DNA from: Ekhidna sp.
GTDB lineage: Bacteria; Bacteroidota; Bacteroidia; Cytophagales; Cyclobacteriaceae
Length of the DNA: 64,000 nucleotides
Assembly (NCBI RefSeq): GCF_040223195.1
Contig: NZ_JAVKDX010000010.1
Coordinates: 73,982-137,981 of the forward strand
Reading direction: 5' to 3'
In this document: one piece after another, positions 1 to 59,609 of the stretch
Layout of the letters: every line of letters begins with the position of its first letter
Numbering within the stretch: position 1 is the first letter of the stretch
Program-made: the position numbers and the translations under genes
The notes under the pieces: model-generated
What the model was told of the DNA's origin: nothing
Databases searched by the model: none
The model's input: only the letters and a program-made list of their open reading frames with translations

Positions 1-1530
1 GGGACTTTCACCGTTCCAAGTAGTGCTGTGGAAGGAACCACTCGTTTGAGAGTTTCCATGAAATACAATGGAATACCAACATCTTGCGAGTCATTCCAAT
101 ACGGGGAAGTAGAGGATTACACAGTAAACATTACCGTAGGTGGAGATACCCAGGCACCAACTGCACCTACTGGTTTGAATGCTTCAAATGTTACACAGAC
201 GACCCTGACATTGAACTGGAACGCTTCGACGGATAATGTGGGAGTAACGGGATATGACGTGTATCAGGGAGCTTCCAACATCGGAAGTGTAACCGGAACA
301 TCTGCTAATATTACAGGTCTGGCAGCTGGCACTTCGTATACTTTTACTGTAAGAGCGAAAGATGCGGCAGGTAATGTTTCAGCGGCAAGTAATGCCCTGA
401 ATGTGACTACCCAAAGTGCGGGAATGAGTTGTGCATCTACAGTTACACTACCATATGCTGAAGGTTTTGAAACCGGAGCTGGGTGGACGCAGGTTACCGG
501 TGATGATGGTAACTGGCTTAGAGATGCCAACGGCACCCCTTCATCAAATACAGGACCAAGCTCAGCAGCCCAGGGATCATATTACATGTATCTGGAGGCA
601 TCAACCTCAGGAACAGGACAGATAGGAAGCAATGCGACCGCCATTTTGGAAAGTCCATGTTTCGATTTATCAGGTGAAAGTGCGGCAACCTTCGCATTCA
701 AGTACCACATGTATGGAAGCAATATAGGCTCACTCACGGTCCAAGCTTCCACGGATGGAAATAACTGGACGAACATTTGGACGCAATCTGGAAATCAGGG
801 TAACTCATGGCAGACTGCCAATATTGATCTGGCTGCTTACCTGGGTGATGACGTGAAACTGAGAATGATAGGAACCACTGGAAACGGATGGTCAAGTGAT
901 ATTGCAATCGATGATCTTTCGGTAAGCGCGGGAAGTACCGGTGGAGATACGGATGTGACATTGACAATCGTATTGGATAACTATCCTGAGGAAACCAGCT
1001 GGCAGATCAGAGACGGTTCGACCGTGCTAGCTTCAGGTGGAACTTACGGTTCCCAGCCCGATGGATCAACCGTGACAGAAGTAATTTCCCTTGCTACCGG
1101 ATGCTATGATTTTGTAATCAATGATAGCTACGGTGACGGAATCTGCTGCTCATACGGAAGCGGCTCATATAGCCTGACAGATGGAAGCACTACGCTTGCT
1201 ACAGGGGGCTCATTTGGATCCAGCGAGACCACCAGCTTCTGTGTTGGTGGAGCTACTTCTTCGATATTTGCCGTGCAGTCATCTGCTTCTGTAGGTTCGC
1301 CTGTGAGCGTAAGCATGTATCCAACTTACCGAGTAGGGGAGCAACTGACAATTGCATCAAATAGGTCTGAGGTGTCTTACACCATTACAAACCTGAACGG
1401 TCAGGCAGTTGAAAGTGGTCAGTTGGTAAATGGTAAGGTATATGTAGGAAACCTGAATGCGGGAATGTACATGATTCACCTCATGGATGAAGGTGGAAAA
1501 TCAATCATGAAGAAGTTTGTAAAAGAGTAA
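1..1530 (+). CDS. Secreted multidomain surface protein with its 5' end outside the window (GEVED-like / fibronectin-III / MAM-like / Cys-rich DNYPEETSW module / T9SS C-terminal sorting domain)
   Basis: Frame 1 is open from base 1 (GTFTVPSSAVEG...), so the listed ATG at 28 is internal. Motifs read from the translation are YGEVEDYTV, an FN3-like stretch PTGLNASNVTQTTLTLNWNASTDNVGVTGYDVY...YTFTVRAKDAAGN, and a MAM-like stretch GFETGAGW...GSYYMYLEAS...IAIDDLSV. The last ~80 aa are a beta-rich tail (MYPTYRVGEQLTI...GMYMIHL) typical of type IX secretion CTDs. Confidence 0.8.
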   Translation, partial: GTFTVPSSAVEGTTRLRVSMKYNGIPTSCESFQYGEVEDYTVNITVGGDTQAPTAPTGLNASNVTQTTLTLNWNASTDNVGVTGYDVYQGASNIGSVTGTSANITGLAAGTSYTFTVRAKDAAGNVSAASNALNVTTQSAGMSCASTVTLPYAEGFETGAGWTQVTGDDGNWLRDANGTPSSNTGPSSAAQGSYYMYLEASTSGTGQIGSNATAILESPCFDLSGESAATFAFKYHMYGSNIGSLTVQASTDGNNWTNIWTQSGNQGNSWQTANIDLAAYLGDDVKLRMIGTTGNGWSSDIAIDDLSVSAGSTGGDTDVTLTIVLDNYPEETSWQIRDGSTVLASGGTYGSQPDGSTVTEVISLATGCYDFVINDSYGDGICCSYGSGSYSLTDGSTTLATGGSFGSSETTSFCVGGATSSIFAVQSSASVGSPVSVSMYPTYRVGEQLTIASNRSEVSYTITNLNGQAVESGQLVNGKVYVGNLNAGMYMIHLMDEGGKSIMKKFVKE

Positions 1531-1550
1531 CCTAAATCTAACCTAATCGG

Positions 1551-1584
1551 AAGCCCTGTTCACACTTGTGGATGGGGCTTTTTG
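1551..1584 (+). terminator. Intrinsic terminator after the secreted protein gene
   Basis: An AAGCCCT / GGGGCTT stem with an inner CAC/GTG pairing is followed by TTTTGTTT. It begins 20 nt after the stop at 1530. Confidence 0.5.
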
Positions 1585-1602
1585 TTTGGCTAGCTTCCCC
1601 AA

Positions 1603-1981
1603 ATGAAATTGAAAATTCCACCGGTCATAATATTCTCTTTATCCCTCGGGTTGTTATTTGGCTCATATTATCTCATTCACGATTTGGCATATTCATTCAT
1701 ATCAAGAACTCATTTCCAGGGTGTTTTTGATAGGCGGAATGTTGTGTGTTATGATGGGCCATCATTGCTTTTCGGAACAAGAGTACCACGGTAGATCCAA
1801 TGAATCCTCAAAAAGCTTATGTACTTGTGACTCACGGCATCTACAAATACACCCGAAATCCGATGTACATAGGAATGTGGTATATCCCCGATTCCCAATC
1901 AAACCGGAAGAAGAAGCGATAACCAAGCTATTCGGAAAGGAGTATAGAGAGTATTGTGAGAAAGTGAGGAGGTGGGTGTGA
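1603..1981 (+). pseudogene. Frameshifted and shortened isoprenylcysteine carboxyl methyltransferase (ICMT/PEMT-like) family gene
   Basis: The family signature is split over three frames. The N-terminal TM part MKLKIPPVIIFSLSLGLLFG is in frame 1. FLIGGMLCVMMG is in frame 2. AIIAFRNKSTTVDPMNPQKAYVLVTHGIYKYTRNPMYIGMW is in frame 3. The C-terminal EEEAITKLFGKEYREYCEKVRRWV is back in frame 2. Only a few nt separate NPMYIGMW from that C-terminal motif, so an internal deletion is also likely. Confidence 0.6.
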
Positions 1982-2098
1982 GGATTTTACTATTTCTCTG
2001 TATGCCCATCAGAATCATGTAGTACTATTTGTACATTCAACACAGCAAAAGTAGCAGCCTCTTTCACTTTCTTTTTAGTATTATTTATTGAAAAGGAA

Positions 2099-2106
2099 TA
2101 GTTTTG
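2099..2106 (+). promoter_or_regulatory. Bacteroidota-type -7 promoter box (TAnnTTTG) for the lipoprotein operon
   Basis: The exact sequence TAGTTTTG lies 45 nt upstream of the ATG at 2151. I saw no clean -33 TTTG at the ideal spacing. Confidence 0.35.
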
Positions 2107-2150
2107 ATGAAAATCATTAAAAACCTAATCCATTAAGTATAAAAATTTTC

Positions 2151-3869
2151 ATGAAAAAATTTCTCCTGCTGACCTTTGTATCAGTAATAATCATCCGATG
2201 CAACCCTAACGAAGAACAAATACAGCCCGATGAACCGAGGGAGAATCCGGGCCACTCCTATGGTAAGGTGAGGATAGATGATGACCCTACCCTTAAAAAC
2301 CTCATGAGTGCCCTTCAGTCCTCTTCCGGTAGAGTGGCAGCCCTGGACCTGGATAGTGCGGAATATCTACATGACGAAGTATTGGACCTGACCAATTATT
2401 CCATTCTTACTTCCGGTAACCGACTGGACCGTATTGAGAACATTGTATTTGTAGACTTTGATTCTGTATACGCCGCATACAATATCATATATGAGCCATC
2501 CCAGTATCATCTGGCCAATTTGGACACGGCAAGTTTTTTGGCCTATTTCTCAGGAACAATTTCTTACCAATCTTTGGAAACAGGCGAAATCTTTTATGCC
2601 ACAGAAATGCAGGATGGGGTATCCATTGATGGGGAAGCGCATGAGGGAGGACGAACCGACGGTGATGGCGATTTTCAGTACGGATGCTACATTGACCAGC
2701 AGGAAACCATGAGTTCCGAATGCTTTATACAGGTGAACACCTATGAAGTAGGTGGCCGGGTAAAATACACAACAATAAAAGTGGAAAAAACCGGCAAAAA
2801 TGCCGGCCAAACACAAACAAGTACCCACTGGGTGCGCTCCGATACCAAAGAGACGATTACTGACATTACCATCACCTGCCACCTGGACACTGACTTTTCC
2901 GAATGCCACTACAATTGGTTCAATACCAATGGATACCAGGTGATCCCGCAGTTTTCCGGCAACAACTTTTCCGGGGTGCTCAGCCTGGTGCCCAGCGGCG
3001 GACCCCAGCTTAGCCTGCTTGATGCCATAGAGAAGCAATTTTACGACTTATTAGAGCAAGATCCCTTTGCCCTTATTCAAAATTGTGACCAGATCGAAAA
3101 CTGGCAAGCCTTAGCCCAACATACACCCCCACAAGAGGTAATAGATAAAATTCAGAATTTAGATGACAACTATACAAGTATAATTTCTGGAGATTGGGAT
3201 ATACAGTACATCAAAGATGCCAAAGGCCCAGTAGTGAACCTGGACTATTTTCCTGTTAAGATCACCCAGCTTCCGATCAATCCTAACACCGGAAATCGGT
3301 TTGGGCCAACTGGTTTTTTTAACTATGTGAGAAAAAACCTAAACACCTTCTTTGCTAATAACTCTACTGAATTTGGCCCTTACAATGATGATGAATTGCT
3401 GAACTGGCTGTCCGATGACTATTTAGGCACAATTATGAGGTTTGATATCGACCTTCCAGGTCCATTTCAGCAAGATGGGAGCGTCATATGTTCTGATCAG
3501 AAAAATAGGAGTTGGATATTTACTACAATTGAATCACCACAAGATTGGAATCATCCTGTGAGTGGAAACAGACAATTTGGATTAGAACAAAATCAAGATG
3601 GAAGCTATACTTTCTTCACAAGAGGTGTTGATAGAGTAGCGGAAACGTTTGACAATTTTGTTGGAGACTTGCCAATTGCCCCATCAGCTTTTGAAGGAGC
3701 GGATGCTCTCTGGAGTGCGTTTCAGGATAATCTGGAAAATTACATCAATGACCCAGCAAATGGAGGGCAAGCACAAAAGGAAAATCCGCAAATTGATCGC
3801 CCTGATTGGGATAAGGTAAATGAAGTATTAATGGGTACCAGGCCGATTTCTGACTTAGGATGTAATTAA
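2151..3869 (+). CDS. Lipoprotein of unknown function whose last ~160 aa form a C-terminal module that recurs downstream
   Basis: The 572-aa ORF has a lipoprotein signal MKKFLLLTFVSVIIIRC followed by NPNEEQ. I recognise no named domain. The C-terminal region WIFTTIESPQDWNHPVSGNRQFGLEQNQDGSYTFFTRGVDR...NGGQAQKENPQIDRPDWDKVNEVLMGTRPISDLGCN* is paralogous to 4584..5063 and to three tail fragments. Confidence 0.8.
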   Translation: MKKFLLLTFVSVIIIRCNPNEEQIQPDEPRENPGHSYGKVRIDDDPTLKNLMSALQSSSGRVAALDLDSAEYLHDEVLDLTNYSILTSGNRLDRIENIVFVDFDSVYAAYNIIYEPSQYHLANLDTASFLAYFSGTISYQSLETGEIFYATEMQDGVSIDGEAHEGGRTDGDGDFQYGCYIDQQETMSSECFIQVNTYEVGGRVKYTTIKVEKTGKNAGQTQTSTHWVRSDTKETITDITITCHLDTDFSECHYNWFNTNGYQVIPQFSGNNFSGVLSLVPSGGPQLSLLDAIEKQFYDLLEQDPFALIQNCDQIENWQALAQHTPPQEVIDKIQNLDDNYTSIISGDWDIQYIKDAKGPVVNLDYFPVKITQLPINPNTGNRFGPTGFFNYVRKNLNTFFANNSTEFGPYNDDELLNWLSDDYLGTIMRFDIDLPGPFQQDGSVICSDQKNRSWIFTTIESPQDWNHPVSGNRQFGLEQNQDGSYTFFTRGVDRVAETFDNFVGDLPIAPSAFEGADALWSAFQDNLENYINDPANGGQAQKENPQIDRPDWDKVNEVLMGTRPISDLGCN

Positions 3870-3876
3870 TATAAAT

Positions 3877-4281
3877 ATGAAAAAATTTATTTTCAAATCT
3901 ATAATACTAGGGCTGCTCTTATATACAATTCATATGGGTTCAATATTGATTTGTGATCACTTTTATGGACAACCGTCCGGTTATGTTTTTTCTGGCTTTG
4001 GTGTTTTTGTGTACGGTTTAATATTTGGGCTATGGGCATATGTTCTACTCAATGGCATATATATATATATATCAAGAAATGATGTTAAGAGGAGCGCTAG
4101 GTATTTAAAAGCCGTTATCATTCTTATGCTAGGATATTTCCTTTCAAGAATACCCGATATGATTGATAGTGATTTCTTTAGCAACTTTAGTTGGAGAGAA
4201 ATTATTGGATTCTTACTATTGATTCCCGCTTTGGTCGAAATTGAGTTCTTACTAAGGAAAAAATTGAATAAGAGTACTTAA
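3877..4281 (+). CDS. Small multi-pass membrane protein (about 4 TM), a candidate cognate partner or immunity protein of the upstream lipoprotein
   Basis: The 134-aa ORF starts 7 nt after the lipoprotein stop and has four hydrophobic segments. It shows no similarity to the other two small membrane proteins in the array. Confidence 0.7.
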   Translation: MKKFIFKSIILGLLLYTIHMGSILICDHFYGQPSGYVFSGFGVFVYGLIFGLWAYVLLNGIYIYISRNDVKRSARYLKAVIILMLGYFLSRIPDMIDSDFFSNFSWREIIGFLLLIPALVEIEFLLRKKLNKST

Positions 4282-4304
4282 AGGTCTATTCAACGATCTT
4301 TCAA

Positions 4305-4460
4305 ATGGAGGTCAACCCTCTAGATCAGAAAATCAAAAACAATGGTGGGTCGTCAGTTGTCCCCAAAGCCTCAGATAATATAATTTATCGACCAGATTGG
4401 GAAAAGGTGAAGGAAGTGTTAAATGGTAATCGTCCAATTAGCGATTTAGAATGTGACTAA
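4305..4460 (+). pseudogene. Displaced C-terminal tail fragment of the lipoprotein family (51-codon remnant ORF)
   Basis: It translates to MEVNPLDQKIKNNGGSSVVPKASDNIIYRPDWEKVKEVLNGNRPISDLECD*, which matches the NGG...RPDW...RPISDL.C.* tail of 2151..3869. A further partial NGGQPSRSENQ remnant is readable in another frame at about 4285-4335. The fragment has no signal peptide or N-terminal domain. Confidence 0.5.
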
Positions 4461-4556
4461 ACACACAATCATGAATACCTTAGCAAAAGTACTCCGTTAC
4501 ATCCTTATTGTCGATGGTTCAATTTTCCTAATATCATTGGTGGCTTCATTAATGAT
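4411..4556 (+). repeat. Direct repeat copy A (146 nt), covering tail end, 10-nt spacer and the first 86 nt of the membrane-protein gene
   Basis: Hand alignment with 5396..5541 shows 144 of 146 identical positions. The mismatches are G/A at 4418/5403 and G/A at 4455/5440. Confidence 0.9.
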
Positions 4557-4584
4557 GCTTACTTTGAGCCATATCCTGATCTGA
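4471..4584 (+). pseudogene. Truncated 5' copy of the membrane-protein gene at 5456..5893
   Basis: The first 86 nt (MNTLAKVLRYILIVDGSIFLISLVASLM) are identical to 5456..5541. Identity ends at 4556/4557 and the frame stops at TGA 4582-4584, which overlaps the ATG of the next ORF. Confidence 0.6.
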
Positions 4585-5063
4585 TGCCCGAAGAAGGTCT
4601 GTTTTGGAGCGGTAATGAATTAGGAACCATAATACATATCGATCTATCCCCTCATGATGGAACAGTGATAGTTACAGAAGCAGAAAATAATCGCTGGATA
4701 TTTAGTGTTATAAGATCACCTCTTGATTTACATCATCCGGTAAGTGGTAACAGGGAGTTTGGATTTACACAAAACAGTGATGGATCTTATACCTTCTATA
4801 CGATGGGTGTTGATCGGCTTACTCAACCAATAGCCAGTTTGGTTCGAGATTTAAGATATTTAATTGATGGTCAAGATATGATGAATCGAGCAGACGATCT
4901 TTGGATGTCATTTCAGGACAAAATAAAGGAATTTGTTGAGCAAAATGGTGGATCCGCTACCCTACCATCTCAAAGGAATCAAGGAGACAGGCCTAACTGG
5001 CATGAAGCGCAACAGTTCTTAAATGGTGAAATTACTTTAGAAGAATTAAGAAATGATTGTTAA
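4584..5063 (+). CDS. Orphan C-terminal module, a paralogue of residues ~415-572 of the 2151..3869 lipoprotein without signal peptide or N-terminal region
   Basis: The core WIFSVIRSPLDLHHPVSGNREFGFTQNSDGSYTFYTMGVDR aligns with WIFTTIESPQDWNHPVSGNRQFGLEQNQDGSYTFFTRGVDR at 29 of 41 identical positions by hand count. It ends in NGGSATLPSQRNQGDRPNWHEAQQFLNGEITLEELRNDC*. It may be silent or a pseudogene rather than expressed. Confidence 0.55.
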   Translation: MPEEGLFWSGNELGTIIHIDLSPHDGTVIVTEAENNRWIFSVIRSPLDLHHPVSGNREFGFTQNSDGSYTFYTMGVDRLTQPIASLVRDLRYLIDGQDMMNRADDLWMSFQDKIKEFVEQNGGSATLPSQRNQGDRPNWHEAQQFLNGEITLEELRNDC

Positions 5064-5313
5064 AGCATTTGAATTCTTTTTGCTAATAGCATTTATTGTA
5101 TGGAGTGTACTTCTTTTCTATTACTGGGACAGAATACTTTATCCAGCAGACTACTTTAGCTACTATTTAGTTTTAACCATAGTATTTTTAGCATATAAGT
5201 CTTTTATGATTATTCAGTTCTTTGCAAATAAAAAAAAACCCAAATTATATCATTTTTTTGGATTGATTGGTTTTGTTATTTCAACAATTCTTTTCATAAT
5301 TTATCCTATCTGA
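5053..5313 (+). CDS. Small multi-pass membrane protein (about 3 TM), a candidate cognate partner of the orphan module
   Basis: The 86-aa ORF has an ATG that overlaps the last 11 nt of 4584..5063. It contains three hydrophobic segments and is unrelated to the other two small membrane proteins. Confidence 0.6.
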   Translation: MIVKAFEFFLLIAFIVWSVLLFYYWDRILYPADYFSYYLVLTIVFLAYKSFMIIQFFANKKKPKLYHFFGLIGFVISTILFIIYPI

Positions 5314-5349
5314 ATAAACCAATTTGGAATTAATAAAATATCATTCATA

Positions 5350-5445
5350 CCATCCCAAAGAAATCAAGGCGACAGACCTAACTGGGAAAAAGTAAAGGAA
5401 GTATTAAATGGTAATCGTCCAATTAGCGATTTAGAATGTAACTAA
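5350..5445 (+). pseudogene. Displaced C-terminal tail fragment of the lipoprotein family
   Basis: It reads ...IPSQRNQGDRPNWEKVKEVLNGNRPISDLECN*. The PSQRNQGDRPNW stretch is shared with the orphan module, and the remainder is nearly identical to the 4305..4460 tail. No upstream domain is present. Confidence 0.55.
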
Positions 5446-5541
5446 ACACACAATCATGAATACCTTAGCAAAAGTACTCCGTTACATCCTTATTGTCGAT
5501 GGTTCAATTTTCCTAATATCATTGGTGGCTTCATTAATGAT
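5396..5541 (+). repeat. Direct repeat copy B (146 nt)
   Basis: See 4411..4556. The two copies are 985 nt apart in the same orientation. Confidence 0.9.
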
Positions 5542-5893
5542 ATCTGATCGCATTATCAGTATGAATTTTGCATATATTAACTTGATAAGCATGATCGTCT
5601 TTCCAATATCTTTATTTGCTTATATTCTAATTAAAGATATCCTAAGGAATAGCACTCAATGGACAAAATTGATCTTTTACATAGGCATCAGCATCGCTTT
5701 TTTGGCTCTGCTTTTTGTGAAATATAAAAATTATTTGAATGGCTATATTGTAGTAATTCCTGGAATTGCTGCAATTCTAGCTCTCATTGTTACAACAATT
5801 TCTGATTTCAAATCAAAAAAAAGGTTAGCTTATGCATGGAGCTACCTATCCCTTATTCTTTTAATCACGTATCTAATTGCCAACTATTTCTAA
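5456..5893 (+). CDS. Small multi-pass membrane protein (about 4-5 TM), an orphan partner with only a tail fragment upstream
   Basis: The 145-aa ORF starts 10 nt after the tail fragment stop and is strongly hydrophobic. Its 5' end is duplicated at 4471. Confidence 0.7.
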   Translation: MNTLAKVLRYILIVDGSIFLISLVASLMISDRIISMNFAYINLISMIVFPISLFAYILIKDILRNSTQWTKLIFYIGISIAFLALLFVKYKNYLNGYIVVIPGIAAILALIVTTISDFKSKKRLAYAWSYLSLILLITYLIANYF

Positions 5894-6046
5894 TCAAAAG
5901 GAATAACATCTTAATTGATCAGAAAATGCTATTCAATGTGCCAAAGATATCTCATGAAATATCTATTCCTCCCTTTATCCCTTTTTTAACCTTCCCCTTC
6001 AGTACCCATTTAGCAAAAAATTATAGAATATAAGGCCATAGTGCAT

Positions 6047-6139
6047 CAGGAAAATCCGCAAATTGATCGCCCTGATTGGGATGAGGTGAAAGAAGTCCTT
6101 CTAGGACTGAGACCAATTTCTGATTTAGGATGCAATTAA
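6047..6139 (+). pseudogene. Displaced C-terminal tail fragment closest to the tail of the intact lipoprotein
   Basis: It reads QENPQIDRPDWDEVKEVLLGLRPISDLGCN*. Positions 6048-6082 are identical over 35 nt to 3778-3812, and the rest is similar with scattered substitutions. Its stop lies 38 nt from the convergent uvrD stop. Confidence 0.6.
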
Positions 6140-6177
6140 AAAATATAATGAAGTTTATTCTAAAATTTGAAAGTATC

Positions 6178-8445
6178 CTAGCCAAGAATCCTCAACTTGG
6201 CAAAGCTCAGCAGCAGCGTTTTCTCTCCGGCTTGTTCAAAATCCACTTTGGCTTTTTTATTGGCACCTTGCTCATCTATCTCCGTCACCACGCCAAAGCC
6301 AAATTTCGGGTGTTCCACCTTCATGCCTTCGGCCAGGTTGCTGGTATCGCTCGGCTCAAAATCAGCACTTGGGGTATGGTTCACCTTCGCAGCAAAGCGT
6401 TTGTTGGTGTTTTCCTTCCGGATATTCGAAACGAAGTTTTTGGTAACATAATTCACCCCGGGCGAGACCGGATCACTTGAAGAAAACTTCCGGTTTACCT
6501 TGATGAATTGCGGGTCTACTTCCTCCAGGAACCTGCTGGGCTCACAGTTTTTGAGTCGGCCAAATCGATATCGGTTTAGCGCATAGCTCATATAAAGTTT
6601 CTTCTCCGCACGTGTGATCGCCACATAGAAAAGCCTGCGCTCTTCTTCCAAATCGGCGCGGCTACTCAGCATCATCTGAGAAGGGAAAAGTTCCTCTTCC
6701 AGACCTACGATGAAAACGTACGGAAACTCCAACCCCTTCGCCATGTGAATGGTCATGAGGGTTACGGCATCTTCATTTTTTTGATTTCGATCCTCGTCTG
6801 TCAGAAGTGCTACATCCTGCAGGAACGCTCCAAGGCTTTTATCTTCCCGCTCCGGATCATCGGTAAATTCTTTGATCGCATTCAGGAGCTCCTGCGTATT
6901 CTCATAGCGGTTCATGCCTTCGATGGTCTTGTCCTCATAGAGCTCCTTCAGCAAGCCAGAAGTCTTGGCTATTTGAGAGGCTGTTTCGTAGGCATCCTTC
7001 TTCTCGTTGGTCAGCCGGAAAGACTTGATCAGGGCGGCAAAATTTTCTACCTGAGTGCCTCCACGGTTTCCTACGTAGGAAGAAGCTTTTTCCATGATTT
7101 CCCAAAGTTCCTTCCCTTCTTCATGGGCAGAGACTACCATCTTATCAATCGTTGTTGGCCCGATCCCTCGCTTGGGTAGGTTGATGATCCGACGCATGGC
7201 TGCTTCATCGTTTGGATTGACCGTGTAGCGGAAATAGGCGAGGAGGTCTTTGATTTCCTTGCGTTGGTAGAATGAAACACCACCCACAATCCGGTACCGG
7301 ATGTTGTTTCGTCGCAGCGCTTCTTCAATGGCCCTGGATTGACTATTGGTGCGGTACAGTACAGCAAACTCTTTCTCTGAAGCATGGCTTTGCATCTTCG
7401 TCTCAAAGATGGCGGAGGCCACCAGCTTTCCTTCCTCATTGTCTGAAGTGGCTTTGATGAGCTCAATGAGATCACCATCATCATTGGCCGTCCAGACGTT
7501 CTTTTTTAGCTGGGCAGTGTTCCTCCCGATCACTGCATTGGCAGCATTTACGATTGTCTTGGTGGATCGGTAATTCTGCTCAAGCCGGATGGTTTTTAGG
7601 TCAGGATAGTCTCTCTCAAAATTTAGAATGTTTTGGATATCGGCTCCCCGGAAAGCATAGATACTTTGCGCATCGTCACCCACCACACAGATGTTTTGTC
7701 GGACGGCAGCCAGTCTTTTGGCTATCAGGTACTGCGAGATATTCGTGTCCTGAAACTCATCGATCATTACGTAATGAAAACGCTGCTGGTATTTGTTAAG
7801 CACATCATCATGTTGCTGGAAAAGGATGTTCGTATTGAACAGGAGGTCATCGAAATCCATTGCATCGGCAGCAAAGCATCGCTCACAATACGTCTTATAA
7901 ATACGCCCCATTTCCGGTCGCATATTCTGCGTATCGTCTTCCAGGTAGATGGGGTTGTTCAGGTACTCCCTCCATGACACGAGTCTGTTTTTCGCTCCAG
8001 AGATTCGGCTGTAGATGATGTTAGGTTTGTAGACTTTGTCATCCAGGTTGAATTCTTTGACGATCAGCTTGATAAGGGATTTGGAGTCATCCGTGTCATA
8101 TATGGTGAAGTTGCTGGGATACCCGATTCGGCTAGCTTCTGCTCGTAAGATTCGAGCAAACACCGAGTGGAATGTCCCCATCCACAGGTTTCTGGCTTCA
8201 GCCCCCACCATTTGCTCAATTCGCTTTTGCATTTCCCTGGCTGCTTTGTTGGTAAATGTCAGTGCCATGATGTTGAACGGATCTACATCATGGGCGCGAA
8301 TGAGGTGGGCTATCCGATAGGTGAGTACCCTTGTTTTGCCTGATCCGGCACCTGCTATGATCATGCAAGGTCCTTCTACATTTACTACACCTTCTCGTTG
8401 GGGGGGATTGAGTTGATCAAGGTAATCTGCCTGCGCTTCTGCCAT
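6178..8445 (-). CDS. uvrD: UvrD/PcrA-family ATP-dependent DNA helicase
   Basis: The 755-aa ORF carries AGAGSGKT (Walker A), IDEFQDTN, VGDDAQSIYAFRGA and TIHMAKGLEF. It also has the C-terminal VEHPKFGFGVV motif. Confidence 0.95.
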   Translation of the reverse strand: MAEAQADYLDQLNPPQREGVVNVEGPCMIIAGAGSGKTRVLTYRIAHLIRAHDVDPFNIMALTFTNKAAREMQKRIEQMVGAEARNLWMGTFHSVFARILRAEASRIGYPSNFTIYDTDDSKSLIKLIVKEFNLDDKVYKPNIIYSRISGAKNRLVSWREYLNNPIYLEDDTQNMRPEMGRIYKTYCERCFAADAMDFDDLLFNTNILFQQHDDVLNKYQQRFHYVMIDEFQDTNISQYLIAKRLAAVRQNICVVGDDAQSIYAFRGADIQNILNFERDYPDLKTIRLEQNYRSTKTIVNAANAVIGRNTAQLKKNVWTANDDGDLIELIKATSDNEEGKLVASAIFETKMQSHASEKEFAVLYRTNSQSRAIEEALRRNNIRYRIVGGVSFYQRKEIKDLLAYFRYTVNPNDEAAMRRIINLPKRGIGPTTIDKMVVSAHEEGKELWEIMEKASSYVGNRGGTQVENFAALIKSFRLTNEKKDAYETASQIAKTSGLLKELYEDKTIEGMNRYENTQELLNAIKEFTDDPEREDKSLGAFLQDVALLTDEDRNQKNEDAVTLMTIHMAKGLEFPYVFIVGLEEELFPSQMMLSSRADLEEERRLFYVAITRAEKKLYMSYALNRYRFGRLKNCEPSRFLEEVDPQFIKVNRKFSSSDPVSPGVNYVTKNFVSNIRKENTNKRFAAKVNHTPSADFEPSDTSNLAEGMKVEHPKFGFGVVTEIDEQGANKKAKVDFEQAGEKTLLLSFAKLRILG

Positions 8446-8781
8446 GCGGCAAAAGTATTTGATTTGGTCAAATAATATTTTTCGACCTAAACGAAATCAG
8501 GAAATGAACCGGAAAATGTTGTTGAGAATGATGAAGCCCAGAAAGGCCAGAAAAAAAATTACTTCCAGAATGAGAATAATATTTCTTGCTTTGAATGCAG
8601 GCTTCTTCACGCGGGTGGCTTGTGTATATAAGTCGAGCTTTTGCAATTGATAAAATTACAACATTATAAAAATGTTATTGCAATGTTAACGCACTCAGCT
8701 AAATCTCGAAAATCAAATTACTTCCGTAATGGATTAAAATAGTTATCTTGTTTAGCATCAAACTAACTTAATTACACTATT

Positions 8782-9189
8782 ATGGATTTTTCATCAATTA
8801 ATTGGCTGGCAGTGGTAGTAGCTTCTGTTTCAGCATTTATTGTAGGGGGATTATGGTACGGCCCATTGTTTGGAAAGGCCTGGATGGCTGAGATGGGCTT
8901 TACCGAAGATGATTTAAAGAATGCCAACATGGCCAAAATTTATGGTACGGCCTTCGTGCTTGAGTTCATCATTGCACTTCAGCTGGCGTACTTTCTGGGT
9001 CATGGAAATACGGATCCATCCGTAGGGCAGGGAGCAGCCTATGGGTTGCATATCGGCTTGTTTTTCATCGCCGCGGCGATGGGTGTCAATGCCCTGTTTT
9101 CCAGAACGTCCCTGAAGCTATGGTTTATCAATGCGTTCTATTTCGTGATCCTTCTGACACTGATGGGAGTGATTTTGACAGTGATGTGA
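8782..9189 (+). CDS. DUF1761-like small membrane protein
   Basis: The 135-aa ORF has 4 hydrophobic segments. Its N-terminus INWLAVVVASVSAFIVGGLWYGPLFGKAWM resembles that family. Confidence 0.6.
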   Translation: MDFSSINWLAVVVASVSAFIVGGLWYGPLFGKAWMAEMGFTEDDLKNANMAKIYGTAFVLEFIIALQLAYFLGHGNTDPSVGQGAAYGLHIGLFFIAAAMGVNALFSRTSLKLWFINAFYFVILLTLMGVILTVM

Positions 9190-9209
9190 AAACAGATAAA
9201 GAATAAATG

Positions 9210-9234
9210 GCCCTCTTTTGAGGGCTATTTTTTT
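9210..9234. terminator. Hairpin between convergent genes
   Basis: The hairpin GCCCTC-TTTT-GAGGGC is followed by TATTTTTTT. It overlaps the stop of the minus-strand gene. Confidence 0.5.
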
Positions 9235-9716
9235 CGCTTAAAACCCCCCTCGTGAAAGGTTTGATCACACGTTTCATCTTTCATAGAGCATACCTGATAC
9301 CTGTACTCATCCTCAGATAGAAATATCCAACTGTCCCTGAGTAGCATGTCACCATAGGCATATTCATAATAGATGTTTTTTCCTTCGATTTTGATTATTC
9401 CCTTACTCACACCCCCTAGCTTATCAAACTCATAGAATTCAAGTTGCTTTGTTTCCGAATTAAAAGCTCTAACACCCTCATTTCTCAATCCAAACTCTAG
9501 AGTCTTAGGATCTGTGGTGTAGGTTTTCACTTTCACAATCTTCCTTTCCAGTCCCCATTCGAATTCCTTCACGGTTTTGCCGTCATGACCTCCGAGTTGT
9601 TTTCCATCAGCAATCCAGGTGCTCCCGACTAGATTCTCGAAGGCCTTTATTGATTCATTTTGTGCCTGAGTAAACTGTGAGGCAATGAGAAGGGAAATCA
9701 GCAGCAGGTTTTTCAT
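9225..9716 (-). CDS. Secreted hypothetical protein
   Basis: I trimmed this to the internal ATG at 9716, which gives a signal peptide MKNLLLISLLIASQFTQAQ. The longer listed ORF would overlap the upstream peptidase gene. Confidence 0.65.
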   Translation of the reverse strand: MKNLLLISLLIASQFTQAQNESIKAFENLVGSTWIADGKQLGGHDGKTVKEFEWGLERKIVKVKTYTTDPKTLEFGLRNEGVRAFNSETKQLEFYEFDKLGGVSKGIIKIEGKNIYYEYAYGDMLLRDSWIFLSEDEYRYQVCSMKDETCDQTFHEGGFKRKK

Positions 9717-9720
9717 CTCT

Positions 9721-11079
9721 TTAGTTTCTTGAATTAGGGCTAAGTTTTCTCGGGATGGACATAATCTCCATTTGCCTTCCGTCAATATACCTGACGGTCT
9801 CGCCATCGAAGAACGCATCTTCTTCCAGCATGATACGGATTTCTTTACCCCACTCTTCAATAAATACCCCAGCATTCAATTCGATGGAGTGAGCGGTATT
9901 TGGATAGAGTGGATAATCGCCCTTGCCAGGTACACCGCCCTGCATGTCCCACAGTCCGATGGTTGGCCCGGCTGCATGCCCATGAAAGCCAATTGGGTGT
10001 GTGTAGATCACACCCTTGAGGCCCTCAGATGCGCATTGATCCAACGTAGACCTGAGTATTTCATTCCCACTACGGCCACTTACGAAATTAGAGGTAAGGA
10101 TGTCCTGAACACGATTCCCTTTTTTAAATGCGGATTTTAAAAAATCCGGCACATCCTGTTCACCGGGCTTCAGCACGTAGGCATGTTGCTGCGTGTCGGT
10201 ATTGAGTCGGAGATATGTAATCCCAAAATCTACATGCAGCAGATCCCCGGGATAGATTATTTGCTGTTCTGGTCGCTCGGAGAATGAGCGCAAATGATCA
10301 AAAGATTCCGGATCCTTTCGCTGGATGGATACCGAAGGATGGAACCAGGCAGTGAAACCCAACTCACGAATCCTGTCACGGTACCACCACACCACATCGT
10401 CGGTAGTTGTGATGCCAGGTTGAATTACTTTTTCTGAAAAACCCTCTGCAATGATCTGATGGGCGATCCTCACAATATTTTGATAAACGATCATCTCACT
10501 TTCGGTGCGGGTTTCCAGCCATCCTATTGCCACATTTTCCGCACCTACGACACGATCCTGATATTTCTTCGGCAGTACATCCATCAGCATATCATAGTGG
10601 GTGGATGAGATGCCATCCGCAAGCGCAAATGTTTCTGATTTATTGATACCTATTTTTTTGGGATCTTTTTTCAGGATCATATCTGCCAGCGCTTTCCACT
10701 GATCTGGCTGCATTTCCTTATTCCACATGGTCTTGAATAATTCACCTGTGTTGTAGCGGGACATCCCGAAAGTTTCCAGGGGCTTGCCTTCCCCGGGATC
10801 GAAAGCGATGAGCATTGTGGTTCTCCTGGCCGATTGCCAGGTAGCTGGCAAGAGGGTCTTAATTACAGGATCTTCGTTGTATTCCCTGGCAATGATGACC
10901 CACATATCAATGCCGGTGCGTCGCATCACCTCAGGGAGAACCGTTTGTATTCGCTCTTCCAGCCAGTTGTCAATGACCTCTGCTCTTTCCTTCATGGAAA
11001 GGATTTTTGGAGTATAGGGATTTTGAGCCCAGAGAGCTGTGCCGAGAATAATAAGGGAAAGATTAAGAATTGATCTCAT
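9721..11079 (-). CDS. M24-family metallopeptidase (Xaa-Pro aminopeptidase-like), secreted
   Basis: A signal peptide is present, along with pita-bread fold signatures DLLHVDFG, HPIGFHGH, HSIELN and MLEED. Confidence 0.8.
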   Translation of the reverse strand: MRSILNLSLIILGTALWAQNPYTPKILSMKERAEVIDNWLEERIQTVLPEVMRRTGIDMWVIIAREYNEDPVIKTLLPATWQSARRTTMLIAFDPGEGKPLETFGMSRYNTGELFKTMWNKEMQPDQWKALADMILKKDPKKIGINKSETFALADGISSTHYDMLMDVLPKKYQDRVVGAENVAIGWLETRTESEMIVYQNIVRIAHQIIAEGFSEKVIQPGITTTDDVVWWYRDRIRELGFTAWFHPSVSIQRKDPESFDHLRSFSERPEQQIIYPGDLLHVDFGITYLRLNTDTQQHAYVLKPGEQDVPDFLKSAFKKGNRVQDILTSNFVSGRSGNEILRSTLDQCASEGLKGVIYTHPIGFHGHAAGPTIGLWDMQGGVPGKGDYPLYPNTAHSIELNAGVFIEEWGKEIRIMLEEDAFFDGETVRYIDGRQMEIMSIPRKLSPNSRN

Positions 11080-49366: not shown

Positions 49367-49454
49367 AGAGAGGTGGCCGAGTGGTCGAAGGCGCACGCCT
49401 GGAAAGTGTGTATACCCCAAAAGGGTATCGAGGGTTCGAATCCCTTCCTCTCTG
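49367..49454 (+). tRNA. tRNA-Ser (anticodon GGA)
   Basis: I folded it by hand. The acceptor stem is AGAGAGG/CCTCTCT with discriminator G. The D stem is 3 bp (GCC/GGC). The anticodon stem CACGC/GTGTG carries the loop CTGGAAA. A long variable arm TATACCCCAAAAGGGTATC is present. The T arm is GAGGG-TTCGAAT-CCCTT. Confidence 0.9.
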
Positions 49455-59225: not shown

Positions 59226-59229
59226 CAAC

Positions 59230-59578
59230 GCAAGCCGACTCATCGTTCCCCACCTGTTAGGTGGAGAAAGGAAAGTCCGGGCAGCATAGAGCAGCGCACT
59301 TCCTAACGGGAAGCGTTCCGCCTACACGCGGGATAGAGACAGTGCCACAGAAAACAAACTACCTCGCTTGCGGGGAAAAGGTGAAAAGGTGAGGTAAGAG
59401 CTCACCGGGCTATTGGTGACAATAGTCGCACGGTAAACCTTGCGCGCTGAAAGACCAAATAGGTTCTGCACTTGAGGGTAGCTCGTCCAAGCAGAATTGG
59501 GTAGGTCGTTAGATCTTATCGGTGACGGTAAGGCTAGATAAATGATGGGATAAAACAGAACCCGGCTTACTGGCTTGC
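59230..59578 (+). ncRNA. rnpB: RNase P RNA, bacterial type A
   Basis: Universally conserved elements GGAAAGTCCGGGC, GTGCCACAGAAAACA, GGTAAGAGCTCACC, GGTAAACC and ACAGAACCCGGCTTA are present. A P1 helix forms between GCAAGCC (59230-36) and GGCTTGC (59572-78). Confidence 0.85.
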
Positions 59579-59609
59579 TTTTTGTTTACAAAGCTTCAAA
59601 AATTCTAAA

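Follow-up and report, generated by a model that had tools for sequence, protein, structure and literature searches.

In a 64,000-nucleotide (nt) stretch of a metagenome-assembled genome (MAG) of Ekhidna sp. (contig NZ_JAVKDX010000010.1; hereafter the window), we identify a full-length lipoprotein gene that is paired with a small membrane-protein gene, memA, and is followed by four fragments of the same gene family. These are a second tail with a truncated copy of the membrane-protein gene memB, a 170-codon fragment with memC, a chimeric tail with intact memB, and a last tail that stands alone. The array is real and not a product of chance, and its anatomy is of the familiar orphan-cassette kind, here in an uncharacterized and unusually organized family. 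We propose that the locus is probably a conflict-type module of two genes in which orphan cassettes have built up, each composed of a toxin 3' end and an immunity gene.

An array of displaced gene 3' ends

An original prediction made from the window held that one stop-terminated tail of about 30 codons occurs five times and that a 92-nt direct repeat brackets the whole array. We recover the five tails with the same translations and ends (3869, 4460, 5063, 5445 and 6139), as well as the perfect 35-nt identity between 3778-3812 and 6048-6082. Tails 1 and 5, which are 92 nt each, share 76 bases, and the 16 mismatches between them are confined to the part beyond position 35; a mismatch-free run of 35 nt has a probability of P = 0.003 under random mismatch placement. 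Compared with a profile hidden Markov model (HMM) of the family C-terminus, tails 1, 2, 4 and 5 give domain E values of 3e-14 to 3e-17, and the 170-codon fragment to which tail 3 belongs matches the HMM of the C-terminal domain at E = 1.5e-56. These repeats are thus displaced 3' ends of one gene family, as had been proposed, and a family HMM search of the 64-kb window finds no copies beyond the five.

A repeat finder places tails 1, 2, 4 and 5 in a single 100-nt family, whose members are 62-81% identical to tail 1. Its other finds are a 96% identical repeat (4390-4556 and 5375-5541) that spans tails 2 and 4 together with the first 86 nt of memB, and a 77% identical pair at 4963-5027 and 5348-5412. 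At the protein level, RP[DN]W is kept in all five tails, and NGG in three only (tails 1-3), 11-15 residues upstream of it. Every tail has a Cys near its stop; the predicted penultimate position holds for four of them, and in tail 3 the Cys is the last residue. A sixth, partial copy that had been read as a scar, GLFNDLSNGGQPSRSENQ, can be found at 4283-4338 in another frame, where its match to the family HMM is non-significant (E = 0.05 at Z = 1). The corresponding 26-nt DNA match was rejected as no better than chance repeats of the region.

The tail is the normal C-terminus of a large family

The tail is not specific to the array, because nearly all homologues in a large unannotated family normally end in it (RPDW..V..VL.G..P.S.LGC, with zero to two further residues). 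A phmmer search of 1.84 billion cluster representatives with the C-terminal 282 residues returned 1,623 clusters at E <= 1e-3, including 1,212 at E <= 1e-10. Among the best 150 matches, the alignment nearly always extends to the protein C-terminus, the exceptions being a few truncated fragments. The clusters are mostly from Bacteroidota, and their members are about 500-700 amino acids (aa) long and mostly lipoproteins. That most of these more than 1,600 clusters are not arrayed speaks against the proposal that the tail is a dedicated recombination or sorting element. Nor does it behave as a special DNA element, since its synonymous sites show no excess conservation: among six close orthologues, third-codon-position identity is 0.50-0.57 in the tail and 0.37-0.68 in other windows of the domain (0.27 in one edge window). 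The tail lies within the range of the domain, and any DNA-level constraint on it is therefore not special.

The family is rare and scattered. We find 205 matching stretches in 185,579 species genomes (one genome per species), or about 0.1% of species, almost all of them in Bacteroidota (Cytophagales, Flavobacteriales, Sphingobacteriales, Chitinophagales and Balneolales). The distribution is patchy, genomic contexts vary and insertion sequence (IS) elements lie near the loci of relatives, while tblastn searches of plasmids and phages returned no family copies. None of the 281 profile hits carries a Pfam domain, and named members are almost all called hypothetical. Likewise, these hits and the long members have no Pfam domain of a recognizable delivery module (type V, VI or VII secretion systems (T5SS, T6SS, T7SS), Rhs or PAAR), and their neighbours are not conserved. 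Neither the lipoprotein nor any of the three membrane proteins had a meaningful hit when scanned against Pfam, NCBIfam, PADLOC and PHROGs, and for the lipoprotein no Pfam or NCBIfam match reached E <= 1. Literature searches found no experimental work on the family.

Some members lie on contigs assigned to MAGs of Janthinobacterium, Halioglobus, Gemmatimonadales and Neobacillus (loci L069, L070, L071 and L078 of our collection; L070 with two orphans), which reflects either horizontal transfer out of Bacteroidota or mis-binning. One 1077-aa protein, P0192, has the same C-terminal domain and tail behind a different N-terminus, which contains two CBM96 domains and, unexpectedly, a Por_Secre_tail-like segment immediately after the signal peptide. 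Other N-terminal modules may thus be able to combine with the C-terminal domain, although P0192 could also be a gene-calling fusion.

Unrelated membrane proteins downstream of the tail

In 77 of 79 loci with a detected tail, an open reading frame (ORF) of 76-188 aa with 2-6 predicted transmembrane helices lies about 0-20 nt downstream or overlaps the tail briefly; no other neighbour of the family gene is conserved across loci. The membrane proteins form about 39 sequence clusters. The larger ones are unrelated by hhalign, with the exception of the memB family and one other (hhalign probability 92.5%). The products of memA, memB and memC have no lipobox, and the downstream proteins have short loops. 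Near-identical tails precede unrelated membrane families, and the tail therefore does not encode partner specificity; as its sequence does not track the membrane-protein family, we rejected the tail as a determinant of immunity specificity. A promoter and terminator scan gave only shuffle-level signals with the sigma-70 consensus, which is unsuited to Bacteroidota.

Within the window, memA is the putative cognate immunity gene of the lipoprotein, and its homologues occupy the same position in L001-L004, L006, L081 and L085. Fragment 2 (SDNIIYRPDWEKV) resembles the tail of a Reichenbachiella faecimaris gene (L010) that is partnered with a memB-type protein, so that tail 2 and memB together resemble a pair that is intact in that species. 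The product of memC forms a singleton cluster with a weak relative at the same position in L085 (7368-7634). A perfect (AT)8 run at 4057-4072 codes for YIYIYI within memA. Slippage there would shift the memA frame, which could allow on/off switching or could simply make the run prone to sequencing or assembly error.

Orphan 3' ends recur in other genomes

Serial displacement, in which each incoming module pushes the previous 3' end downstream, would predict that the same architecture recurs elsewhere, and other genomes and metagenomes do show it, at about 20 loci. These loci, about a quarter of the total, contain about 32 5'-truncated 3' ends, with examples in Mangrovivirga (L004), a Flavobacteriia MAG (L005), Sinomicrobium (L065) and the MAG labelled Halioglobus (L070). 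All counted orphans keep the stop codon; the tally took in only fragments that reach the gene end, hence the stop codon in each. An intact ORF with several transmembrane helices lies within 60 nt downstream of about three quarters of the orphans. The largest arrays are found in the closest relatives, in Joint Genome Institute (JGI) metagenomes: L081 has three orphans, and L085 has at least six tails with IS elements nearby, together with a second copy that is nearly full-length and frameshifted. An exact 32-nt tail search of metagenome contigs for variants of the Ekhidna array itself gave 0 matches.

In L085 (1-9151) and L081 (5040-11030), the C-terminal domains are 68-69% identical to that of the window, and the leading copy either is frameshifted or no longer has its N-terminal half. 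Transposases of the IS21 and DDE types are encoded within a few kb, and the arrangement is repeated in several samples.

Mosaic junctions cluster at a tryptophan codon

The proposal that recombination junctions lie inside the tail is borne out in the window. Tail 4 agrees with tail 3 at 11 of 12 nt through the TGG codon of RPNW; past that codon it agrees instead with tail 2, at 38 of 39 nt and then at 40 of 40 nt on into memB. Identity between tails 1 and 5 stops 3 nt beyond the same TGG and falls to 72% afterwards. Orphans in L081, L005, L065 and L085 likewise start at or within a few codons of the RPDW Trp codon. A similarity switch exactly at this codon points to exchange there and not to random deletion.

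Contrary to the original prediction, breakage is not limited to the tail. The 5' ends of orphans lie anywhere from HMM position 114 to 270, with more than half at 239-270 and RPDW at 259-262. In the window, the truncated memB copy (memB') and fragment 3 are joined through a 12-nt microhomology, TTCATTAATGAT, at 4545-4556, which recurs at 5530-5541. This junction is an illegitimate or deletion-type join inside a membrane gene. Fragment 3 is 42% identical to the intact gene. It contains an ATG-started ORF of 159 aa (4584-5063) for the distal half of the START-like domain described below, without a signal peptide; this ORF might be translated as a cytoplasmic half-domain.

Serial displacement fits this layout, with the newest module adjoining the intact gene and older ends pushed downstream, and under such a history the truncated memB' could be tolerated because an intact memB was already present. 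It is possible, though not demonstrated, that tail 5 is the original gene end and that just one insertion separates the two members of the 92-nt pair. The order of events is not provable, and a duplication-plus-deletion history is also possible.

The lipoprotein carries a START-like C-terminal domain

The 572-aa protein consists of a signal peptide with a lipobox-like Cys17, an N-terminal domain (about residues 35-156), a Cys-rich linker and a C-terminal domain (about 289-572). A signal peptide and lipobox are found in 72 of 108 full-length members, the lipobox Cys is nearly invariant in alignments, and acidic residues are common after it. This acidic pattern resembles the sequence that reportedly serves as a surface-export signal in Bacteroidota lipoproteins, and surface export of the family may be suggested on this basis. 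The N-terminal half shows 13-37% identity across the family, yet is homologous throughout by iterated HMM search; the C-terminal half is better conserved (35-70%). In an AlphaFold2 model, residues 35-156 have a beta-alpha-beta4+ order compatible with a cystatin fold, and Foldseek gave no significant match to this model (E >= 1, with a best match at E = 1). A profile search for other C-terminal fusions of the N-terminal domain matched one family member, and is a weak test.

The model of residues 281-572 is of high confidence (predicted local distance difference test (pLDDT) 89.9; predicted template-modelling score (pTM) 0.86). Three helices come first, then a helix-grip core and last the tail, whose two short strands and one short helix pack against the domain (pLDDT 87-95 as far as model residue 280). 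Foldseek matches it to Bet v 1/PR-10, CoxG, PYL receptors and STARD10 (probability 1.0; E = 2.6e-5 and a template-modelling score of about 0.6 for Bet v 1/PR-10/CoxG), with target-normalized template-modelling scores of about 0.5-0.67 at about 10% identity, and a PDB profile search returned only Gly/Ser low-complexity matches. The predicted structure thus identifies the C-terminal domain as a START/Bet v 1-like helix-grip.

Six residues of this domain are invariant (His468, Pro469, Arg474, Asp494, Arg495 and Trp521). Two cysteines, Cys312 and Cys571 close to the C-terminus, are also almost invariant, and the sole homologue without the terminal Cys is also without Cys312. This joint loss suggests a structural disulfide, which probably staples the tail to the domain. 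The sorting role that had been suggested for the terminal Cys finds nothing in its favour.

Table 1. Features of the array and its downstream border, in window coordinates
Feature	Position	Strand	Remarks
Full-length family gene, 572 aa	2151..3869	+	Identical (100%) to an NCBI hypothetical protein, Ekhidna sp. MAG
Tail 1, ENPQIDRPDWDKVNEVLMGTRPISDLGCN and stop	3778..3869	+	Final 30 codons and stop of the intact gene
memA, 134 aa, 3-4 predicted transmembrane helices	3877..4281	+	Starts 8 nt past the gene stop
Fragment 2, about 45 last codons of a second allele (HMM 239-281)	4320..4460	+	Tail 2 is 4369-4460
memB', truncated memB copy (first 86 nt)	4471..4556	+	Homology ends at 4556
Fragment 3, about 170 last codons of a diverged allele (HMM 114-278)	4545..5063	+	Ends in the divergent tail 3
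memC, 86 aa, 3 transmembrane helices	5053..5313	+	Overlaps the fragment 3 stop
Fragment 4/tail 4, chimera	5348..5445	+	5' part resembles tail 3; after the TGG codon resembles tail 2
memB, intact, 145 aa, 5 transmembrane helices	5456..5893	+	Homologue downstream of the L010 gene
Non-coding DNA, about 150 nt	5894-6047		
Tail 5, orphan, last 30 codons	6048..6139	+	No membrane gene after it; in-frame stop upstream
uvrD, convergent	6178-8445	-	Tail 5 ends 38 nt from the uvrD stop

Discussion

The tight two-gene unit, the fast-replaced membrane partner, the patchy spread and the dead stubs before intact genes together lead us to read the lipoprotein as a probable toxin. In the module that we propose, gene 1 would encode a lipoprotein toxin that is probably borne on the surface or on vesicles. 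Its toxic part would be the START-like domain with the polar set His468, Arg474, Asp494, Arg495 and Trp521, directed at a lipid, a lipid-linked molecule or some other target embedded in the membrane. The immunity factor would be the product of gene 2, a small polytopic membrane protein. Segments made of a gene-1 3' part and its membrane gene would enter by recombination, with one end anchored in the homologous 3' region, repeatedly at the RPDW Trp codon, and with the other end sometimes joined illegitimately, as may have happened at the 12-nt microhomology. With each entry, the previous 3' end would be left downstream together with its membrane gene. The truncated fragments are probably inert because they have no signal peptide and are missing most of the domain, while membrane genes would be kept intact as protection against the toxin versions of neighbours. 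We propose that the tails represent the homology that travels with each immunity gene.

A wider version of this proposal, which we regard as possible and advance only tentatively, is that of surface-lipoprotein toxins found throughout the Bacteroidota. These would have a START-like lipid-binding or lipid-modifying domain and be countered by dozens of unrelated inner-membrane immunity families, with mini-cassettes of about the last 20 toxin codons and an immunity gene swapped at an RPDW Trp hotspot so that immunity libraries against the toxins of neighbours build up.

Several observations weigh against reading the locus as a toxin-immunity module. By sequence, we find no toxin, immunity or secretion domain. 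Specific binding between toxin and immunity protein does not usually pair one conserved domain with dozens of unrelated membrane proteins, and tail 5 has no membrane gene at all. With the C-terminus conserved and the N-terminus divergent, the polarity is reversed relative to classical polymorphic toxins, and the orphans would not supply new toxin types. The Arg that precedes the lipobox Cys in the window protein is atypical. START-fold proteins are mostly ligand binders or enzymes, and earlier toxin labels given to bacterial START proteins have since been revised (PMC13525633). Finally, the contig comes from a MAG, which is a caveat of the study.

This last point raises the possibility that strain variants of one locus were concatenated by the assembler through shared repeats, and the contig does hold a nearly identical 142-nt repeat. 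Most tails, however, are 63-83% identical and too divergent to be mis-joined, and the junction between memB' and fragment 3 shares just 12 nt. Equivalent arrays are present in independent assemblies and in isolate genomes, with the same layout in Mangrovivirga (L004) and Sinomicrobium (L065) isolates and an identical form in several independent metagenome samples (L081-L088). We therefore consider an assembly artefact very improbable. Site-specific cassette capture, with the tail as an att- or attC-like recombinase site as in integrons or in integrative elements that rebuild the target gene's 3' end, would explain why 92-nt direct repeats bracket the inserted block and why junctions recur at GAYTGGGA. 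It meets with the absence of any recombinase ORF at 1-10000 or among conserved neighbours, with tails in which the repeat finder detected no inverted repeats or hairpin structure, with repeat identity of only 63-83%, and with the absence of copies from the plasmids and phages searched; it seems to us hardly credible.

Two other explanations do without a recombination role or without antagonism. Complete pairs may have been duplicated or inserted side by side, and every lipoprotein gene except the first may then have lost its 5' part to deletions, some of them mediated by microhomology. In such a set of decayed tandem paralogues, the tail would survive solely by abutting a retained membrane gene, whose expression signals it may carry. 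The sequence at 4545-4556 looks exactly like a deletion between 12-nt direct repeats, and the spread of orphan 5' ends, the frameshifted second copy in L085 and the unexceptional synonymous conservation of the tail are all in keeping with decay. Against this, orphans usually start a few to a few dozen nt after the stop of the preceding membrane gene, N-terminal halves and promoter regions are not left behind, and decay does not account for exact Trp-codon switches (tails 3/4, 2/4 and 1/5) or for orphans that start at this codon in other genomes. We judge this history unlikely, while giving it more weight than the other alternatives. Alternatively, the pair could be a non-antagonistic envelope module in which the START-like domain carries or senses lipid, the membrane protein is its inner-membrane partner and the fragments are neutral debris. 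START domains are classically lipid carriers, and a toxin signature was not found. A housekeeping partner would not be expected to be replaced by about 39 clusters, the larger of them mostly unrelated, nor would a housekeeping family be confined to about 0.1% of species genomes in contexts that are not conserved, and intact membrane genes are repeatedly kept behind dead fragments. We consider such an envelope role improbable and continue to favour a toxin-immunity module.

Orphan cassettes of a toxin C-terminal (CT) region and an immunity gene have reportedly been described in contact-dependent growth inhibition (CDI; cdiA-CT/cdiI), in Rhs and in Neisseria MafB systems. The present loci share with these systems 5'-truncated toxin 3' ends downstream of a full gene, in the same orientation and most with a small gene of their own (four fragments in the window and about 32 in about 20 other loci). 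They also share sequence that permits recombination with the main gene, and a patchy, accessory distribution. In the CDI, Rhs and MafB systems, the toxin domain at the C-terminus is hypervariable and conserved homology precedes it, whereas here the whole C-terminal domain and tail are conserved and the N-terminus and downstream gene vary. The classical combination of conserved N-terminal trafficking regions with a hypervariable C-terminal toxin is thus absent from the family (C-terminal half 35-70% and N-terminal half 13-37% identity). T5SS, T6SS and Rhs machinery is also absent here, and the putative immunity proteins are polytopic membrane proteins. In pore-forming colicins, the killing domain is C-terminal and conserved, the uptake domains are N-terminal and variable, and the immunity protein is a small inner-membrane protein with 3-4 transmembrane helices; colicins thus resemble the present pair in their conserved C-terminal domain, variable N-terminus and small membrane partner. 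They differ in that their killing domain is a helical bundle and not a helix-grip, their immunity gene is on the opposite strand, and they are plasmid-borne and not lipidated.

Within the general framework of polymorphic toxins (Zhang et al. 2012, PMC3482391), the closest published mention of the family is a single sentence, without experiments, in Burroughs, Nicastro & Aravind 2025 (eLife, PMC12419801, section 29). They list a "START-domain-like helix-grip" among the C-terminal toxin domains of Bacteroidota polymorphic toxins with a lipobox and a Cystatin-like domain, and a 2026 review of bacterial START proteins repeats this mention alone (PMC13525633). The window family may be the one meant, as it shares the phylum, the lipobox, a Gly/Ser-rich linker in many homologues, the C-terminal helix-grip and a predicted lipid-directed toxicity. 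The immunity proteins of that report are BamE-like or jelly-roll lipoproteins (PMC12419801), whereas the downstream proteins here have several transmembrane helices, and orphan arrays are not described there.

Tandem membrane immunity genes also accompany the membrane-depolarizing T7SS toxins of the TspA/TsaI type (Garrett et al. 2022, PMC9484751). As in our arrays, a single toxin gene is followed by a series of genes for small polytopic membrane proteins that are not identical to one another, with recombination between repeats. The TsaI genes are paralogues of one immunity family, occur in Firmicutes and are without toxin 3' fragments, whereas unrelated membrane genes, each with a toxin-gene stub, are found here. 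Myxobacterial SitA proteins are lipobox-anchored, polymorphic toxins whose toxin-immunity cassettes are mobile and work without a secretion apparatus of their own (PMC5562445, PMC8546572), and the loci proposed here would resemble them in these respects. SitA toxins differ in their variable C-terminal nuclease-type domains, cytoplasmic immunity and TraA-dependent outer-membrane exchange, and have no sequence or fold relation to the window family.

If our reading is true, these loci would represent an untested class of antibacterial weapon for the Bacteroidota, including marine Cytophagales and Flavobacteriales as well as Sphingobacteriia. To our knowledge, interbacterial toxins of these groups are poorly known beyond T6SS and the Bacteroidales secreted antimicrobial proteins (BSAPs). 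The fold of the killing domain would be one for which no toxicity has been shown before, and immunity would come from many unrelated membrane proteins, which bears on how immunity specificity evolves. The orphan arrays amount to a list of candidate immunity genes, in a family of 1,623 clusters whose members are annotated as hypothetical and which has no Pfam or NCBIfam model.

Other features of the window

Just upstream of the lipoprotein gene, at 1603-1981, three overlapping short ORFs resemble a frameshifted membrane methyltransferase of the PEMT/ICMT type, and are either a pseudogene or the result of MAG sequence errors. A 40-aa piece matches PF04191 (E = 1e-4) and PF04140 (E = 4e-3), both below gathering thresholds. 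A protein with type IX secretion system (T9SS) C-terminal sorting, GEVED, fibronectin-III and MAM domains enters from the left window edge (28-1530) and has no apparent link to the array. Rfam hits above the gathering score in the window are limited to a bacterial class A RNase P RNA (59227-59585, 268 bits) and one tRNA (49367-49454).

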